Of a stretch of DNA of 64,000 nucleotides, positions 51,032-58,218 are shown one piece after another. Within the stretch, counting starts at the first letter, position 1. The number at the start of each line of letters is the position of its first letter. The notes beneath the pieces were generated by a model. The model made no database searches. It was not told the origin of the DNA and saw nothing but the letters and a program-made list of their open reading frames with translations. The translations under genes and the position numbers were made by a program. Source of the stretch: a phage; the sequence record OZ413487.1; one strand, written 5' to 3'.

Positions 51032-51490
51032 TTAGAAGTTTGTTTTTACACGTCCCTTCTCATCAACCTCGTTGTTAGCTAAAAGCGTTACAAAGTCTGT
51101 GAAACGAACATGAAGAACCCTTTTCTTATCAAGGTATCCTAAAGCCACCCCTGAGAAATTTAGCATCAAAGGGGCTAAAGAAGCTCTGGCACTGAAATGC
51201 TGTTGTTCTACCCTTCCAACACCCTTAGTGTAGGATGGGTTAAGATTGTAAGTTCTGAATCCCAGTTTTGTTGGAGCTTTAGAATTAAAAACGACTTTAT
51301 AGCGTTTCTTACTCAACTTATGCTCCAGGATAAGCATTCCCTTATCACCTTTGATAAGTTGAAAATCTGTAAAGTGCTCTTTTAAGACGAAAGGTAGTGC
51401 CAGTCCCATCGCCTGTCCTCTTTGTACCGCTGTCTCACCAAAAGCTTTTGCATCAGTAAGTTCTTTGGTCAAGTCTATGCTTTTGATCAT
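51032..51490 (-). CDS. hypothetical protein
   Basis: ORF track. Confidence 0.4.
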   Translation of the reverse strand: MIKSIDLTKELTDAKAFGETAVQRGQAMGLALPFVLKEHFTDFQLIKGDKGMLILEHKLSKKRYKVVFNSKAPTKLGFRTYNLNPSYTKGVGRVEQQHFSARASLAPLMLNFSGVALGYLDKKRVLHVRFTDFVTLLANNEVDEKGRVKTNF

Positions 51491-52301
51491 ACCTGGTCTC
51501 CAAAATGTATTGTAGTTCTTTCTTACCTATACTCTTCATTCCAGCAGTCTTACCTGCTTCTTCTTGAAAAGAAGAATAGCATTCAGCAAACACTCTGTCA
51601 ACACCGTTAACTAAAGATTTTATGAAATATGTTGATTCTTCAGATTTTGGGTCATCATCCCCCAATACTTTTCCAGCATTATACCCAACACGTCTTACAC
51701 AGAAGTCGTAGTCATCTGGTGTGCTAAAAGAAAATAACTTATTCTCTCCAATCTCTACAGGATCCCTATTGCACGCCTTTTTCTCCCAAATTTGGAAAAC
51801 ACATGGCACGTCATAAGGTTTGCCATTAAGTAAAAACGAATTCTTAGGGCACCTTTCGCTGTAGACAAGGTGCATCGACATGTCCAGTTTGTTTGCAAAA
51901 AATATTTTTTCAAATGTCCGTGGCAAGATGAAGGCTATAGCCCCTCCAAGCTCTAGCAATGATGCACAATGGTTAAAGAATTTGCAAGCTAAGGATGAAT
52001 TCTTGCCAAATGGTGGGTTACCTATGAAGACATCTGCCTTGGGATGCACCTCCAAGAAGTTTGCCTGAATGCACGGTGTTGGTCCTTCAAATTCAGGATC
52101 TGGTACTAAATCGTACGACAGTATCTCTGAAAATAGTTTTGAAAAAGAACCCCTTCCAGCAGAAGGCTCAACGTATGCACAATTCCCATACTTATCTTTT
52201 ACTTTACCAACAAGATATTCTGCATACTCAGGGTTTGTGTAGTATTTGTCGTTGGACTCTTTCTTGCTCAAAGTGCCTCCAAAAGGAAAAGGGAGGCGCA
52301 A
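51453..52301 (-). CDS. N6-adenine DNA methyltransferase (motif I before motif IV)
   Basis: YYTNPEYAEYL, motif I VEPSAGRGSF, motif IV IGNPPFG. Confidence 0.75.
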   Translation of the reverse strand: MRLPFPFGGTLSKKESNDKYYTNPEYAEYLVGKVKDKYGNCAYVEPSAGRGSFSKLFSEILSYDLVPDPEFEGPTPCIQANFLEVHPKADVFIGNPPFGKNSSLACKFFNHCASLLELGGAIAFILPRTFEKIFFANKLDMSMHLVYSERCPKNSFLLNGKPYDVPCVFQIWEKKACNRDPVEIGENKLFSFSTPDDYDFCVRRVGYNAGKVLGDDDPKSEESTYFIKSLVNGVDRVFAECYSSFQEEAGKTAGMKSIGKKELQYILETRYDQKHRLDQRTY

Positions 52302-52316
52302 GCCTCCCTATAATTG

Positions 52317-53300
52317 TTAGATTATCTGAATCAGGGTATTTTTCATTTCTTCTCTGGTTCGGATGTTGTTACGGTCACGAACAACAGATCCACAACCTTC
52401 GCAGCGGTATGTTTTAAATGCACTCAGTTGAGTATACGCCAAAGCTTCTTCCTCGTGAAGGTGTTCTCCACCACAGCGTGGGCAACGAACTTTTGGCTCC
52501 TCATCCTGGTAGTACAATGACATGTTGGGGTGCTGCTTAGCAAACGGGCGAGCCAGCAAATACAGGCCTTCCAGAGATAGGATATCGCCAACATTGTACT
52601 CCCGCATCTGTTTAAACGCCTCAAGATCACCGTGAACACACTTGATCCACATTTCAAATGTGTGGTCAATCAGTTTCTGTCGGGCAAGTTGGAAGTATTT
52701 GCATGCATACTCCAAAGTGTTTGCATTCAAACGGAATGCCTTCTTGATCATTTTAAGGGTGTCAACCTCTTTGTAGGGGCTTGTTGGAGGCAATCCGTGA
52801 AATGCAAATCGTTGGTTGGCCCACCCACAGTCAAAACCTGAATTGTGGGCTACTGCGACATCACATTTATCCAGATAATACCACAAATCCTGAATCAATT
52901 CGAGATCATTGTGAATATCCTCATCCCACATTTTGTAATCAGGAAGAGCGCAGTCAACCACACTAGGACTGTCTAACCACTTACCTGCGAAAGTTAGCAT
53001 GTAGGGCATAATTTCAATACCACAGGTTTGAATGTTGGTCTTATAGTGCCCAAAGAACCAGCCGTTTGTTGGGGATGTCTCTGTATCATACACCCAAACT
53101 TTAGCACCTTTGTGCTCCTCAAGGAAGCGCTCCGTTGCCTCTCCTACAATCTCTGACATATTCTCTTGTGCACGTTTAAGCTGTAGTCGGATCCAGCTCT
53201 CACGTGACTCACGGCCTAAAAATTCACGAGCAATTTGTCTATTAGTGTATCCCTGTTGCTTTAGTGTTAAAATTTGCTCAAGAGTTAACTTTGTCATCAT
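52317..53300 (-). CDS. DnaQ-like 3'-5' exonuclease with N-terminal HTH and C-terminal zinc ribbon
   Basis: Exo I VYDTETS; Exo II VAHNSGFDCGW; C-terminal CPRCGG...CEGCG. Confidence 0.55.
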   Translation of the reverse strand: MMTKLTLEQILTLKQQGYTNRQIAREFLGRESRESWIRLQLKRAQENMSEIVGEATERFLEEHKGAKVWVYDTETSPTNGWFFGHYKTNIQTCGIEIMPYMLTFAGKWLDSPSVVDCALPDYKMWDEDIHNDLELIQDLWYYLDKCDVAVAHNSGFDCGWANQRFAFHGLPPTSPYKEVDTLKMIKKAFRLNANTLEYACKYFQLARQKLIDHTFEMWIKCVHGDLEAFKQMREYNVGDILSLEGLYLLARPFAKQHPNMSLYYQDEEPKVRCPRCGGEHLHEEEALAYTQLSAFKTYRCEGCGSVVRDRNNIRTREEMKNTLIQII

Positions 53301-53312
53301 CGTTAAGATTCC

Positions 53313-53534
53313 TTAGTAAAACTGAAGAATGTCTTTTAAAGCGAAGTCACGATATTCGCCCTTGTCTACATCGAAGGCACGCATCAACCACTGCTCTTCT
53401 TTATGATACTCTGTAGAGCCAAACCATAAATTAGGCTCAGTAACGCAGCGATCTGCAACAACACCTTTCCAGTTACGGTATTTCATCCTGATCAGGACTG
53501 AGTCGCAAGGATTGAATACCTTTTTCATCCCCAT
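53313..53534 (-). CDS. hypothetical protein
   Basis: ORF track. Confidence 0.35.
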   Translation of the reverse strand: MGMKKVFNPCDSVLIRMKYRNWKGVVADRCVTEPNLWFGSTEYHKEEQWLMRAFDVDKGEYRDFALKDILQFY

Positions 53535-54078
53535 AGAAATCTCTCTCCTCAGTTTTCTTTATAAACTCTTGCATGTAGGACTCAATAGCCTCATGCTTGG
53601 TGCACTCCGGATCAATGACAAGATTGAGATCTGATTCTGCTCGTGCAATAATCGTAGCTTTAGAGCATCTCCTCAAGAACTTTGTCATATCATCTCTGTA
53701 GTTTTTGTGGAGCGGGAAGTCGCTGTAGTCTTTCTCCAAATAGTCAGCCATCCGGCGCAACGCCTCTGATAAACTGCAATCTGTATACTCGTTACAGTAT
53801 TTCATCCAGTATTTAAGCACATACCCCTCAAAGGTATTAGTGCATTGAGACAAAACACCCCTGCAACGACCAGTCAGATGATCATGATCTAAACAAGGCT
53901 TACGAAGTGGCTCGCACAAGATCGGATCAAGACCATCCTGCTCCTCTGACAATTCTTTTCGAAAGTTGGCTATGTCCTTAGAATCTTTTAACCACCCGTT
54001 ATGAACTGGGGCTTTGACAGCTTTCTTTCTTATTTTACGCTTTGCGATAATCCCTCCAGATGAGCCCTGCCTATCCAA
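53473..54078 (-). CDS. endonuclease VII-like (His-Me finger) junction-resolving nuclease
   Basis: CLDHDHLTGRCRGVLSQCTNTFEG matches T4 endo VII LDHDHELNG...VRGLLCNLCNAAEG. Confidence 0.6.
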   Translation of the reverse strand: MDRQGSSGGIIAKRKIRKKAVKAPVHNGWLKDSKDIANFRKELSEEQDGLDPILCEPLRKPCLDHDHLTGRCRGVLSQCTNTFEGYVLKYWMKYCNEYTDCSLSEALRRMADYLEKDYSDFPLHKNYRDDMTKFLRRCSKATIIARAESDLNLVIDPECTKHEAIESYMQEFIKKTEERDFYGDEKGIQSLRLSPDQDEIP

Positions 54079-54659
54079 TAAGCATCTGCGAGATCGGCCT
54101 TACCTTGTACCAAATTGATCCCGTCTAGGAACCCAGGTTCAGATACTTCGCAGGCCTTAACCATCAACTTTTTATCCATTGTAACAGGTTTCTTCACAGT
54201 ATGCTCTTTACCTGTCTTTTTGTCAAGCTTTTTCTTCTCCTCAAAAGCAAGTTCTTCAGGAAGATGACTACGAGCAAACTTTTTGGCAGTTGTTGGTGTC
54301 ACTGTGTGGACCTTAAACAGGCCGTCATTTTCACAATCAGCTAAGGCATCCCAAAGCATAATTTCAAGACCGTAAAACAACCCAGCCAGTTCACGTGTGG
54401 CATCCCCGCGTGATCCAAAGGAAAGCCCTTCCATAACCACGGTGTCAACGTGATGCGTGTGGATATAATATCTGACCTGTTTGCAGATCCAGTCAATACG
54501 CTCAGCAGCTGTTGCAAAAGAAACCGTCCCTGGTTTCTTCTCTTTTGCAGATGAGCTTTGAGTTCGTAACACAACCTTATGAACAGGCTTTCCATCGTCC
54601 CATACAACGCAAGCTGTGTGTGTCAACGACTGGTCTATGGATAATAGACGCTCTCTCAT
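54030..54659 (-). CDS. RuvC-like Holliday junction resolvase
   Basis: N-terminal LSIDQSLTHTACVVWD, VVMEGLSF, C-terminal DLADAYWIGRAHL resemble RuvC catalytic motifs. Confidence 0.5.
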   Translation of the reverse strand: MRERLLSIDQSLTHTACVVWDDGKPVHKVVLRTQSSSAKEKKPGTVSFATAAERIDWICKQVRYYIHTHHVDTVVMEGLSFGSRGDATRELAGLFYGLEIMLWDALADCENDGLFKVHTVTPTTAKKFARSHLPEELAFEEKKKLDKKTGKEHTVKKPVTMDKKLMVKACEVSEPGFLDGINLVQGKADLADAYWIGRAHLEGLSQSVK

Positions 54660-54991
54660 ACTTCCTCATCCTCCTCTCCTTCATCAGGAGCATAAGCCTT
54701 ATCTTTGAACAAGACGAGAGAGCAAAGCTTAACATCTGTTTCCACACTGGTGAACATGCATAACCGCTCGCCCTCAATCAGTTCACAATCCTCTTTTAAA
54801 ACAGCAGACCATACACGGTCATCTGCGTAATCATCAGTGTACAGGATGTATGAAATGGTGTCATCTTCATACAACCGCCACATACCTGTGGCAACAACGA
54901 ATGTATTTTTTGTTTTAAGTGTCCCTGTTGTATGATCATCCTCAAAAACAGCTTCCATAATTGCACTATCTACAGAATTTTTAGTCATCAA
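54656..54991 (-). CDS. hypothetical acidic protein
   Basis: ORF track. Confidence 0.4.
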   Translation of the reverse strand: MMTKNSVDSAIMEAVFEDDHTTGTLKTKNTFVVATGMWRLYEDDTISYILYTDDYADDRVWSAVLKEDCELIEGERLCMFTSVETDVKLCSLVLFKDKAYAPDEGEEDEEV

Positions 54992-56127
54992 ATTGCTCCA
55001 ACATTTCTAAGAACGTTAACAAGTTTTGTTTGATCATTGAATGTTCGCTTCATATACAAACAGTCAAAAATTATACTCATCCATTGACCTACGGAAATTC
55101 TACGATCAACACCATTGAAGTCAGTATACTTAACAACACCTTTCGGGAACCACTTCTTGTACTGATCAATAATAGCCACCCACATCTCCTTTGGAGTGCT
55201 GCACTGAGACAGTAGGTAGAATGCTGAGGCATCTCCGAACTTACCCTTACCGATAAGTCCCTGATACGGCTTGATGTTGTCAGCAGAGTCACCACACAGC
55301 ATTTGGTATCCGAAGAACAGCATTCCGTAACCACCAACCTCTCCATTAGGCTTCATGAAGATGTTCCCCATACCGTTATCGATCAGCATAGGGGTTTCTC
55401 TTACAAAATCTCCCTTATCGTTTCGCATGGGATCGAACACAAGCCCCGGTAGTGTTCTTTGGTCCTTATCAATAGAGATAATAAACTTGTTGAACTTACC
55501 TGTTTTTTGGTAGTGGTTCCAACCTTCAAATTGCTGGATAGCTAACCAGTCGTCAGCCTCGATACCGTTGATCACTTGAGCATTATACTGCTTTTGGAGA
55601 TACTGTCTTGCATCTCCAAGCAGCAGTGGTCGAAGAGTATTGTTACGGTTGGCTTTATATCTTTCCGGCATGGGAAGATCTAGTCTGAAATTACCTGTGC
55701 CTCCAAGTACCCCCACGCACCGATCTTCCGGAATACCGAGATAATTAAGGACTGCATTAGCTTTACACTTAATTGTGTGCAAGCAGTTCTCTACAGGATC
55801 AGGGGTTTGGATATCCAAGACATCGAAATCTTCTCGTGTCCACGGAATAAACTCCTTGCCAGCCTTTTTACATGCAGCTTCACGGTTGGTATTCTCAGCT
55901 TTTAACCAACCACCAACGGTGTTCTTCTGCCGCCCCCAGAACTCTGTTCGTGTTTTAAACATCTTCTTACGTCCGGAGGCTTTGTGTGTTACCTCAATTG
56001 TCCTTTTTTCACAACTTGCTGCAGCTTGATATGCAACCTGATCGAAGTCATAATAAACTATAGCGTCAGGTTCAAGAAGATCAGCCAGACAATCTATGGA
56101 CTCAATAAGTGGATATTCTCTACTCAA
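54988..56127 (-). CDS. 5'-3' exonuclease / flap endonuclease (FEN family)
   Basis: VINGIEADDWLA and H3TH-like CGDSADNIKPYQGLIGKGKFGDA match T5 D15-type GVEADD / GDLGDNIRGVEGIGAKRG. Confidence 0.6.
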   Translation of the reverse strand: MSREYPLIESIDCLADLLEPDAIVYYDFDQVAYQAAASCEKRTIEVTHKASGRKKMFKTRTEFWGRQKNTVGGWLKAENTNREAACKKAGKEFIPWTREDFDVLDIQTPDPVENCLHTIKCKANAVLNYLGIPEDRCVGVLGGTGNFRLDLPMPERYKANRNNTLRPLLLGDARQYLQKQYNAQVINGIEADDWLAIQQFEGWNHYQKTGKFNKFIISIDKDQRTLPGLVFDPMRNDKGDFVRETPMLIDNGMGNIFMKPNGEVGGYGMLFFGYQMLCGDSADNIKPYQGLIGKGKFGDASAFYLLSQCSTPKEMWVAIIDQYKKWFPKGVVKYTDFNGVDRRISVGQWMSIIFDCLYMKRTFNDQTKLVNVLRNVGAI

Positions 56128-56487: not shown

Positions 56488-56781
56488 TCAAGACTTTTTA
56501 GTCTTTCTTGGAGAGCTTTTTGTTGATCTTTTCCTTTTGTGGTAGATTCCAAGTGCAGCGTTTTCTTGGGCGCACGTTTTAACAGTTCTCAGACAAGAAC
56601 TTTCAGCTTTAGGCAGGTTTAACTCCCACCAACCAAGCCAGTAAAGTTCTGATTCAGACAACTGCTCAGATTCAGCCTTCCGATACAAGGCTTGCATACC
56701 TCTGATGATATCGTCCAGAGGTGTATCGAATACAAAAGCTGTCTTATCGAATTTCTCTTTTACAGGTTTCTTAGCCATCAA
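56488..56781 (-). CDS. hypothetical basic protein
   Basis: ORF track. Confidence 0.4.
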   Translation of the reverse strand: MMAKKPVKEKFDKTAFVFDTPLDDIIRGMQALYRKAESEQLSESELYWLGWWELNLPKAESSCLRTVKTCAQENAALGIYHKRKRSTKSSPRKTKKS

Positions 56782-57235
56782 GGTAACCCTCTATCCACGA
56801 AAAGTCAGTCTTCCACTCTGGAACTTTACTAAGCTCACGCCACTCTGCAAAGCAGTCTCGGTAATACTCCTCTGCCATACCTTTGGTGATCTTATTCACC
56901 TTAGCCAACTGATTAACTGCCTGAGCATACTTTCCACGGATATTTGCTAACCCAGGGTGCACCGATGTGTGACAATCCGGGCACAACGCTATCAGTCCGA
57001 CAAGCCGGATCACTCCCTCTTCGAAAGTGTAAAGTTCATGACACTCCACTGGGTGTTTGCTGCCTTTACCGCCGCACACCTCACAGGTGTAGTTGGCTTC
57101 TCTATAGCACTTCTTGCGGATCTTATCCCACTCACTCTTCTTTACAGCGTTTCGGAGGTTATTATACCAAGCTGTTTCTGGGATCAGTTGCACAATAAGC
57201 CTGCGTTCAGACTTCATTAAACGTCCGTCTTCCAC
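56771..57235 (-). CDS. hypothetical Cys/His-rich (zinc-binding) protein
   Basis: CEVCGG...H...CPDCH pattern. Confidence 0.4.
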   Translation of the reverse strand: MEDGRLMKSERRLIVQLIPETAWYNNLRNAVKKSEWDKIRKKCYREANYTCEVCGGKGSKHPVECHELYTFEEGVIRLVGLIALCPDCHTSVHPGLANIRGKYAQAVNQLAKVNKITKGMAEEYYRDCFAEWRELSKVPEWKTDFSWIEGYLDG

Positions 57236-57519: not shown

Positions 57520-58218
57520 TTACAAGCTTTCAGTAAGAGCCTTTGCGTAACACGCTTCAGCAGACTCTTTGGTGTCAAACCTGCCTAACGTTTTTCCTCT
57601 GAAAGTTACTTTCCATTTGCCCCTGTCTGCTTCAAATCTGACACCTCTAGATTTATCCCTCCCTAAAGGCTGTCCACGATATTCCCTGACAAACGTGCCA
57701 CTTTCAAAAGACTTTTGAGCAGCAATGGCCTCTTCTAAGGTATCGTATTCTCCTAAATCTTTCTTATAGTAATGACCTACCTTACCAAAAGCAGCATACC
57801 TTCCAGATCTAGCATGAAAATATACACCCAAATGTCCAGTATTGGATTTAGGTATCTTGCGTGCCAGGCATCCGTCATCTGCCGCCTTTTTTGCATTTTC
57901 TTCTGGTGTTAACAGTTGTAGGTTTTCTACCCTATCATCCGCAACACCATCGGAATAGAAAAGTGGCTTTATGTGATCAACTTCGTACCCTTCTGGGATT
58001 GGTCCATAGTGCATCTCCCACACCAATCTATGCCTGTAGTAATGCACGCCACAATAGACTATATCCCTGTACCCGTCCATGTTAGTACATCCAGCCTCCT
58101 TTCCCAGTAGTTGAGGTTTGTTTTTTGGCGGGGACTTCCAAAACAACCTTCCAGTTCCTGTATCGTATCTAAAGACACTCCACCAGTTAATCCCGTTACT
58201 CATCTGTAACAACTCCAC
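57520..58218 (-). CDS. HNH homing endonuclease with AP2 DNA-binding repeats
   Basis: HNH core HRLVWEMHYGPIPEGYEVDHI...NLQLLTPEEN; two AP2-like repeats (GRYAAFGKVGHY...EAIAAQKS; GKWKVTFRGKTLGRF...AEACYAKA). Confidence 0.75.
   Translation of the reverse strand: MELLQMSNGINWWSVFRYDTGTGRLFWKSPPKNKPQLLGKEAGCTNMDGYRDIVYCGVHYYRHRLVWEMHYGPIPEGYEVDHIKPLFYSDGVADDRVENLQLLTPEENAKKAADDGCLARKIPKSNTGHLGVYFHARSGRYAAFGKVGHYYKKDLGEYDTLEEAIAAQKSFESGTFVREYRGQPLGRDKSRGVRFEADRGKWKVTFRGKTLGRFDTKESAEACYAKALTESL

Follow-up and report, generated by a model that had tools for sequence, protein, structure and literature searches.

Why should a phage keep two unrelated junction-resolving nucleases side by side, and where does the second of the two genes begin? 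The question is raised by a stretch of 64,000 nucleotides (hereafter the window) of the phage sequence record OZ413487.1, which at about 99% identity to published genomes is, by sequence, a Vequintavirus, that is, an rV5-like coliphage of E. coli. Here an open reading frame (ORF) for a RuvC-like protein is followed on the same strand by one for an endonuclease VII-type protein. An original prediction had described the two ORFs as lying back to back within 53473-54659 with a 49-nucleotide overlap, and both are present exactly as described, on the minus strand, at 53473..54078 (201 amino acids from a TTG) and 54030..54659 (209 amino acids from an ATG). We argue that the pair probably belongs to a conserved module in which both nucleases are apparently catalytically intact, and in which the endonuclease VII gene starts not at the TTG at 54078 but at an ATC at 54048, leaving an overlap of 19 rather than 49 nucleotides. 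The features of the junction are as follows.

54030..54659, minus strand: RuvC-like gene, 209 amino acids; ATG start after GAGG-AAGT, stop TAA at 54032..54030.
53473..54078, minus strand: longest ORF for endonuclease VII, 201 amino acids; TTG start, stop TAA at 53475..53473.
53473..54048, minus strand: endonuclease VII gene as re-delimited here, 191 amino acids; start ATC at 54048..54046, stop TAA at 53475..53473.
54053..54057, minus strand: Shine-Dalgarno sequence GGAGG, 4 nucleotides upstream of the ATC at 54048 and within the final codons of the RuvC-like gene.
54046..54048, minus strand: ATC, proposed non-canonical initiation codon of the endonuclease VII gene, from locus comparison, frame switch and curated records.
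54076..54078, minus strand: TTG of the longest-ORF call and of most GenBank records, rejected here as the start; no Shine-Dalgarno sequence, by-product of RuvC codons.
54030..54048, minus strand: probable true overlap of the RuvC-like and endonuclease VII genes, 19 nucleotides, given the ATC start.

Taken by itself, the window seems to leave little choice of start codon: the endonuclease VII frame is open from 54099, and the TTG at 54078 is the only canonical start upstream of residue 44. Our comparison set for the junction consists of 31 related loci, drawn from phage records in GenBank, from IMG/VR and from assembled metagenomes; 19 of them form a group made up of Vequintavirus, Seunavirus, Mydovirus, Henunavirus, one Stephanstirmvirinae phage and uncultured relatives. 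In the window, the GGAGG at 54057..54053 is followed by GATT and then by the ATC. The same layout recurs in every one of the 19 loci of the group, which carry GGAGG or GGGGG, a spacer of 4 nucleotides (6 in one locus) and then ATC or ATA in the endonuclease VII frame. Upstream of this codon, ATG, GTG and TTG are all absent from the open frame in 15 of the 19; downstream of it, the next canonical codon is 12-69 codons away, within conserved sequence. In the remaining 12 loci, which are more distant, a Shine-Dalgarno sequence precedes ATG, GTG or TTG at the homologous position, and this codon is followed by the same Lys/Arg-rich N-terminal peptide that is conserved across this endonuclease VII clade (for example IAKRKIRKKAVKAP or IRRKRVKSPxSKPKARKKP). 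The Shine-Dalgarno sequence itself is conserved in every locus with a RuvC-like gene directly upstream of endonuclease VII, and it is kept in Henunavirus despite a different C-terminal peptide of the RuvC-like protein (QEA rather than LEG).

The substitution pattern changes at the same codon. Counting pairwise codon differences among eight Seunavirus and Mydovirus sequences as synonymous versus non-synonymous, we find ratios of 124:27 in the RuvC frame and 46:144 in the endonuclease VII frame upstream of the ATC. Between the ATC and the RuvC stop the balance is reversed, at 8:39 in the RuvC frame and 48:24 in the endonuclease VII frame, and beyond the RuvC stop the counts are 24:278 and 241:67, respectively. 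To judge from these counts, selection on the endonuclease VII frame begins at the ATC. It is also because of this pattern that we take the stretch after the RuvC stop, intergenic in several GenBank records, to code in the endonuclease VII frame.

Because of the 31-locus comparison, then, we consider ATC 54048..54046 the most likely start and 54030..54048 the corresponding overlap. The 49-nucleotide overlap of the original prediction (54030..54078) stands as a geometric fact of the longest ORF, whereas the biological overlap is most likely the shorter one, the start having been mis-called. An overlap of 19 nucleotides is found alike in the Vequintavirus, Seunavirus and Mydovirus loci; in other lineages it is shorter, at 1-16 nucleotides, with TAATC, TAATA and ATAG arrangements. 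Wherever the RuvC-like gene lies directly upstream, the endonuclease VII start falls 19, 16, 10, 7, 4 or 1 nucleotides before the end of the RuvC stop codon. With a start and a Shine-Dalgarno sequence in or near the 3' end of the preceding gene, and both conserved, the gene arrangement fits what would be expected of a translationally coupled overlapping pair.

Initiation at such a codon has precedent: in E. coli, AUC, AUA and AUU support initiation that is roughly 0.02-3% as high as from AUG, still with Met at the N-terminus (10.1101/063800). A start of this kind is also already to be found in curated records: in the RefSeq entry of PVP-SE1 and the GenBank record of GAP31 endonuclease VII starts on the homologous ATC, and in RefSeq rV5 on the adjacent ATT. 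Manual curators thus reached a non-canonical start earlier, and automated calls have since drifted to the TTG, to downstream GTGs and to truncated ORFs. The published Vequintavirinae pairs (rV5 ORF96/ORF97, PVP-SE1 gp124/gp125, GAP31_152/151) comprise the same genes in the same order as in the window, and within Vequintavirus the endonuclease VII is 93.5-99% identical to that of the window; most automated records differ in the endonuclease VII start, given as the TTG (with the 49-nucleotide overlap), a downstream GTG, or that of a badly truncated ORF. Many GenBank Vequintavirus records carry the same ORF coordinates as the longest-ORF call, including the 49-nucleotide overlap. Gene-called endonuclease VII homologues in public sets (P0034-P0081) range from 129 to 201 amino acids, mostly through differing N-terminal calls, and this spread is a sign that the non-canonical codon has led to systematic mis-annotation of the start.

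How do other readings of the junction fare? Imagine that translation did begin at the TTG at 54078, as the GenBank and longest-ORF model has it, so that the protein had 201 amino acids and the 49-nucleotide overlap were genuine. The TTG is annotated in most deposited Vequintavirus records, is present in all nine Vequintavirus sequences compared and, as we have seen, has no canonical competitor upstream of residue 44. It lacks a Shine-Dalgarno sequence upstream, however (in the Murica record three neighbouring genes have a listed ribosome-binding site and endonuclease VII has none), and it arises from the RuvC-frame codons TAT TGG, which encode the Tyr-Trp of a DAYWIG motif in the catalytic helix. 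Every substitution between the TTG and the ATC is synonymous for RuvC and non-synonymous or nonsense in the endonuclease VII frame. In locus L013, where the endonuclease VII is 93% and the RuvC-like protein 96% identical to those of the window, a RuvC-silent GGC-to-GGT change makes an in-frame TAG between the two codons, and the ATT beside the ATC has become TTT with the ATC retained. Given further that the TTG is lacking in 15 of the 19 related loci, and that in relatives outside the genus similarity to the 201-residue ORF starts only at residue 24-29, we regard a TTG start as very improbable. A less radical departure would be initiation at the ATT at 54051..54049, one codon before the ATC, which would give an overlap of 22 nucleotides and leave the biology otherwise the same. 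The RefSeq coding sequence of rV5 begins there, and ATT is a documented E. coli start codon, in infC and pcnB (10.1101/063800), but here it lies only 1 nucleotide from the GGAGG, and relatives have TTT, AGT, GCT, TAT, GAT, CCT, TTC, GAA, TGT, GTA or ATA in its place while the next codon is always ATC or ATA; we think this start unlikely. Alternatively, endonuclease VII might have no initiation codon of its own and be made as a RuvC-endonuclease VII fusion by a programmed -1 frameshift near the RuvC stop (GTA AAA TAA). In its favour, passing from the RuvC frame to the endonuclease VII frame does take a shift of -1, the A-run just before the stop could let a Lys-tRNA decoding AAA slip and pair again, and a Shine-Dalgarno-like GGAGG lies upstream. 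The A-run is not conserved, though (Henunavirus, for example, has CAG GAG GCA TAA), and the GGAGG is too near to it for a dnaX-type stimulator. Locus L024 would have no room for a slip site: a single codon of open endonuclease VII frame precedes the ATC, which shares one base with the RuvC stop (G TAA TC). As relatives also carry ATG, GTG or TTG at the same position and Certrevirus-like phages have a different upstream gene, a frameshift seems to us scarcely credible.

Initiation at the ATC, which we prefer, has points of its own to answer. The pairwise synonymous and non-synonymous counts are not phylogenetically independent. The residues encoded at the start position (I, M, V and L) are all hydrophobic, and conservation of the codon could by itself mark an internal residue; what carries the argument is the stop codons upstream, together with the change in selection pattern. 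The spacing of 4 nucleotides between Shine-Dalgarno sequence and start is on the short side, yet the ATG of the RuvC-like gene has the same GAGG-N4 spacing. Finally, the TTG at 54078 is in frame and open in the window, and some initiation may take place there.

Two further candidates were tried and rejected. One was a start at the downstream TTG at codon 44, which would remove a conserved Trp and the helix 1 that aligns with the N-terminus of the T4 protein. The other was masking of the start by folded RNA, as in T4 gene 49; a 111-nucleotide stretch around the start folds no more stably than shuffled sequence (z = +0.97) and gives no evidence for such masking.

Are both proteins what the original prediction took them to be, namely nucleases of two junction-resolving families with unrelated folds, set in a nuclease gene cluster? 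Profile matches (PF02945, phrog_423 and phrog_159) and predicted structures agree that one is a His-Me finger endonuclease VII and the other an RNase H-fold RuvC-like protein, and the loss of catalytic residues that might have spoken against the assignment is not seen, both proteins keeping them on alignment. For the RuvC-like protein, sequence-only searches would have left the matter in some doubt. The ORF matches phrog_159, 'RuvC-like Holliday junction resolvase', at 4.5e-39, and PF02075 is present in its distant homologues P0030 and P0032. The protein itself, however, has no Pfam or NCBIfam match, which counts against our reading, and phmmer against PDB found nothing either; its family profile reaches PDB RuvC at an expectation value (E) of 0.55 at best, and hhalign against a single, approximate E. 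coli RuvC sequence was uninformative, at a probability of 2.5%. It was the fold comparison that settled the link to RuvC. Using the AlphaFold2 model (predicted local distance difference test, pLDDT, 92.8; predicted template-modelling score 0.89) in a Foldseek search of PDB, we find that the top 11 matches are bacterial RuvC proteins (Thermus, Deinococcus, Pseudomonas), at E 9e-8 to 1e-5, probability 1.00 and a template-modelling (TM) score of 0.72-0.79 on the target; E. coli RuvC (1hjr) and RuvC of the lactococcal phage bIL67 are also matched. The model thus has the RuvC-type RNase H fold.

Catalytic residues are where that predicted fold would have them. In E. coli RuvC the catalytic tetrad is D7, E66, D138 and D141; the phage protein has an acidic tetrad D9/E77/D189/D192, with E77, D189 and D192 invariant and D9 at least 90% conserved among 30 homologues. 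D189 and D192 fall within a DLADAYWIG motif, the tetrad sits in the model at the end of beta-1, at the end of beta-4 and in the last helix, as in RuvC, and the alignment with D. radiodurans RuvC matches the D and E equivalents. The phage protein thus has the RNase H-like fold and the acidic tetrad in common with bacterial RuvC (PF02075; 4ld0, 7w8d, 1hjr) and bIL67 RuvC (4ktw), but is only 11-17% identical to the bacterial structures, is below Pfam and NCBIfam detection, and, like the rest of its clade, contains an insertion of some 30 residues (roughly 133-165), basic in character and predicted to form a beta-hairpin, that RuvC lacks. By inference from these likenesses it would be a dimeric, Mg-dependent Holliday-junction resolvase. 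Within the neighbourhood that was examined, 50-58 kb, no RuvA or RuvB partner was seen. GenBank records with the same coordinates label the gene 'RNaseH' or 'hypothetical'.

The endonuclease VII ORF is recognised from sequence more readily, its Pfam Endonuclease_7 (PF02945) score of 31.6 bits exceeding the gathering cutoff of 23.6 and its match to phrog_423 'endonuclease VII' reaching 3.5e-37. Its sole PDB relative by sequence is T4 endonuclease VII (structures 1e7d and 1en7, E 3e-4), and with the AlphaFold2 model (pLDDT 85.6) T4 endonuclease VII (1e7l, 1en7, 2qnf) is again the only significant Foldseek match in PDB, over 153-156 alignment columns; the low TM-score of this match is expected because a monomer model is set against a domain-swapped dimer. 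Numbering residues from the ATC start, the catalytic D54, H55, H57, N71 and E74 align to T4 D40, H41, H43, N62 and E65; in alignments of 11, 36 and 28 sequences the first four are invariant and E74 is nearly so. The model has the full-length architecture, an N-terminal nuclease domain followed by a C-terminal helical dimerisation and DNA-binding domain. What the phage protein shares with T4 endonuclease VII (gp49; PF02945; 1en7, 2qnc) is therefore the His-Me finger catalytic set and the C-terminal helical domain, the alignment covering about 153-156 of the 157 T4 residues.

The two proteins nevertheless differ in several respects. Identity is about 24%, and the phage protein has none of the four cysteines of the T4 structural zinc site. 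These ligands, which we take to be C23, C26, C58 and C61, align with D, L, S and T in the window, and no conserved Cys4 set is found across the endonuclease VII clade alignment. We treat the phage enzyme as a zinc-less variant that is still a family member, the Cys4 set being a trait of T4 gp49 and not a requirement of PF02945, although loss of the ligands could affect its stability or function. At the N-terminus of the phage enzyme some 18 additional residues form a peptide rich in Lys and Arg, and the Vequintavirus proteins also have an added C-terminal tail of about 20 residues. This tail, which is overlapped by the next ORF, is absent in other genera and predicted to be disordered (pLDDT below 50); in those genera the 3' overlap with the next ORF is about 11-20 nucleotides where annotated ORFs are comparable. 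Lastly, the phage gene, unlike that of T4, is probably AUC- or AUA-started and lies directly downstream of a RuvC-like gene. The T4 enzyme removes branches from DNA ahead of its packaging and also acts at mismatches (PMC5714182, PMC7344957). By analogy, the phage enzyme may likewise cut branched DNA before packaging.

How old is the pairing? The original prediction raised the possibility that one of the two genes was a recent acquisition. The distribution of the pair speaks against this, with synteny extending across Vequintavirinae, a Stephanstirmvirinae phage and Aeromonas and Vibrio phages. A RuvC-like gene lies directly upstream of endonuclease VII in Vequintavirus, Seunavirus, Mydovirus, Henunavirus, one Stephanstirmvirinae phage and one Vibrio phage, while a single inserted gene separates the two in Certrevirus-like and Aeromonas (Plateaulakevirus) phages. 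In the Certrevirus/phAPEC8-like phages (L008 1807-2460, L009 1810-2454, L025-L030) the inserted gene encodes about 215 amino acids (phrog_12410), and endonuclease VII has a canonical ATG, GTG or TTG start and overlaps it by about 56-62 nucleotides. The INPHARED set holds 268 records with a homologue of the RuvC-like protein and 433 with one of endonuclease VII. Because the pair is conserved and usually directly adjacent across these phage groups, it is, on this comparative evidence, not a recent acquisition.

Jumbo phages present a different picture, RuvC-type and endonuclease VII-type resolvases being nearly complementary in their distribution (PMC7824862), and because of this the stable co-occurrence described here is mildly unusual. 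Might only one of the two proteins, then, be a true junction resolvase, the other having drifted to some other role, as a nicking or mismatch endonuclease, in degradation of host DNA or as a structural partner? Besides the rarity of two resolvases in one genome that the jumbo-phage pattern implies, the loss of the T4 zinc site in this endonuclease VII clade could be cited in favour, as could the roughly 30-residue insertion in the RuvC-like clade and its scores below the Pfam RuvC thresholds. Against such drift, the catalytic residues of both families are conserved clade-wide, both predicted folds match resolvases over their full length, and long-term co-retention argues for selection on both. 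We consider it doubtful that one partner has lost the activity, and retain the reading that both nucleases are apparently intact.

The surroundings of the pair form a conserved DNA-processing module of rV5-like myophages, with every gene in this part of the window on the minus strand. In addition to the features above, it contains the following.

54988..56127, minus strand: putative 5'-exonuclease (FEN-like), two genes upstream of the RuvC-like gene in the same operon-like block; phrog_107 'exonuclease' at 5.7e-71, GIEADDW motif, GenBank label 'putative 5'-exonuclease'.
54656..54991, minus strand: small ORF between the 5'-exonuclease and the RuvC-like gene.
53473..53534, minus strand: overlap of the endonuclease VII 3' end with the next ORF, 62 nucleotides, from the ORF coordinates.
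53313..53534, minus strand: small ORF, 73 amino acids; ATG with a strong GAGGAG Shine-Dalgarno sequence, weak WYL/SH3-like matches.
52317..53300, minus strand: DnaQ-like 3'-5' exonuclease with a C-terminal zinc ribbon; phrog_403 at 1.4e-110, sub-threshold RNase_T and DnaQ matches.

Of the two neighbours named in the original prediction, the DnaQ-like exonuclease is borne out by its phrog_403 match. The FEN-like nuclease is better called putative: its identity is based on phrog_107, the GIEADD motif and GenBank labels, and Pfam, NCBIfam and PDB sequence searches with the product gave no match. Just upstream of the nuclease cluster are two HNH endonuclease genes, at 56771-57235 (a phrog_5200 match) and 57520-58218 (HNH_3 and AP2 domains, resembling a homing endonuclease). 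On the other side, an N6-adenine-methyltransferase-like ORF at 51453..52301 (phrog_5172/phrog_799) overlaps a 152-amino-acid ORF at 51032..51490 by 38 nucleotides; the record of phage naam puts a methyltransferase label on both pieces, which may represent a split or two-part gene. Between the DnaQ-like exonuclease and methyltransferase genes, at 52290-52309, there is a perfect 8-bp GC-rich hairpin (AGGGAGGC, a 4-nucleotide loop, GCCTCCCT) with a terminator-like score on both strands. On a larger scale, the sign of the GC skew flips from positive to negative at about 24-26 kb, consistent with a change of the predominant coding strand.

As to the source of the window, the 3.9-kb stretch at 52300-56200 matches more than 100 published Vequintavirus (rV5-like) coliphage genomes at 98.5-99.2% identity, among them those of phiWec189, naam and AlexBoehm. 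The same stretch is matched across its full 3.9 kb by 20 unannotated GenBank records (MG0656xx) that are named 'Campylobacter phage' with C. jejuni as host; the seven that were listed have about 98.6-98.7% identity to the rV5-like sequence of the window. Either the assignment to C. jejuni looks questionable, or these records may stem from contamination or from a coliphage that was carried over.

What would the phage gain from such an arrangement? In the mechanism we propose, endonuclease VII would be initiated at the AUC at 54048, with the GGAGG 4 nucleotides before it still inside the RuvC coding sequence; the initiating ribosomes may be ones that have just finished the RuvC-like gene and re-initiate. 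A start codon as weak as AUC, placed shortly before the RuvC stop, would give little endonuclease VII, and a debranching nuclease of broad specificity and potential toxicity would in this way be kept below the level of its RuvC-like neighbour. A division of labour is plausible in which the RuvC-like protein deals with recombination and replication-restart junctions and endonuclease VII with debranching for packaging. That Vequintavirinae and at least one Stephanstirmvirinae phage (FBKp34) combine all of these traits, namely a conserved AUC or AUA start of endonuclease VII, termination-reinitiation coupling, a very unequal ratio of the two nucleases and possibly a functional pair, seems to us an evenly balanced proposition. 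The closest parallels are E. coli infC and pcnB, which are AUU-initiated and hence also have a conserved weak start of the isoleucine-type near-cognate kind (10.1101/063800); the phage codon differs in being AUC or AUA, in being embedded in the 3' end of the preceding gene, and in being known here from sequence comparison.

Both genes and their families are already in public annotation, several recent (Pharokka-style) records naming the pair 'RuvC-like Holliday junction resolvase' and 'endonuclease VII', so that the finding is known biology with a modest twist. The papers searched on rV5-like phages contain no discussion of the gene pair or of the start codon. What is noteworthy is the conserved AUC or AUA start with its 19-nucleotide coupled overlap, the zinc-less endonuclease VII with its basic N-terminal peptide, and the long-term retention of two folds. 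For annotation, it would mean that most public records of a large, therapeutically used phage group mis-delimit the endonuclease VII gene; with the simple comparative rule GGAGG-N4-ATC/ATA the start comes out right in each of the 19 loci examined in the group. The stable co-retention of a RuvC-type and an endonuclease VII-type enzyme runs counter to the near-complementary distribution in jumbo phages, and the fact that it goes together with a weak start codon, itself conserved, suggests that the dose of a broad-specificity nuclease is deliberately controlled, although neither point alters the current understanding of either enzyme family. If true, the proposed arrangement would add a rare conserved start other than AUG, GUG or UUG to the few known in enterobacterial systems (infC, pcnB), and would show two resolvase folds working together in nature within a single virus.

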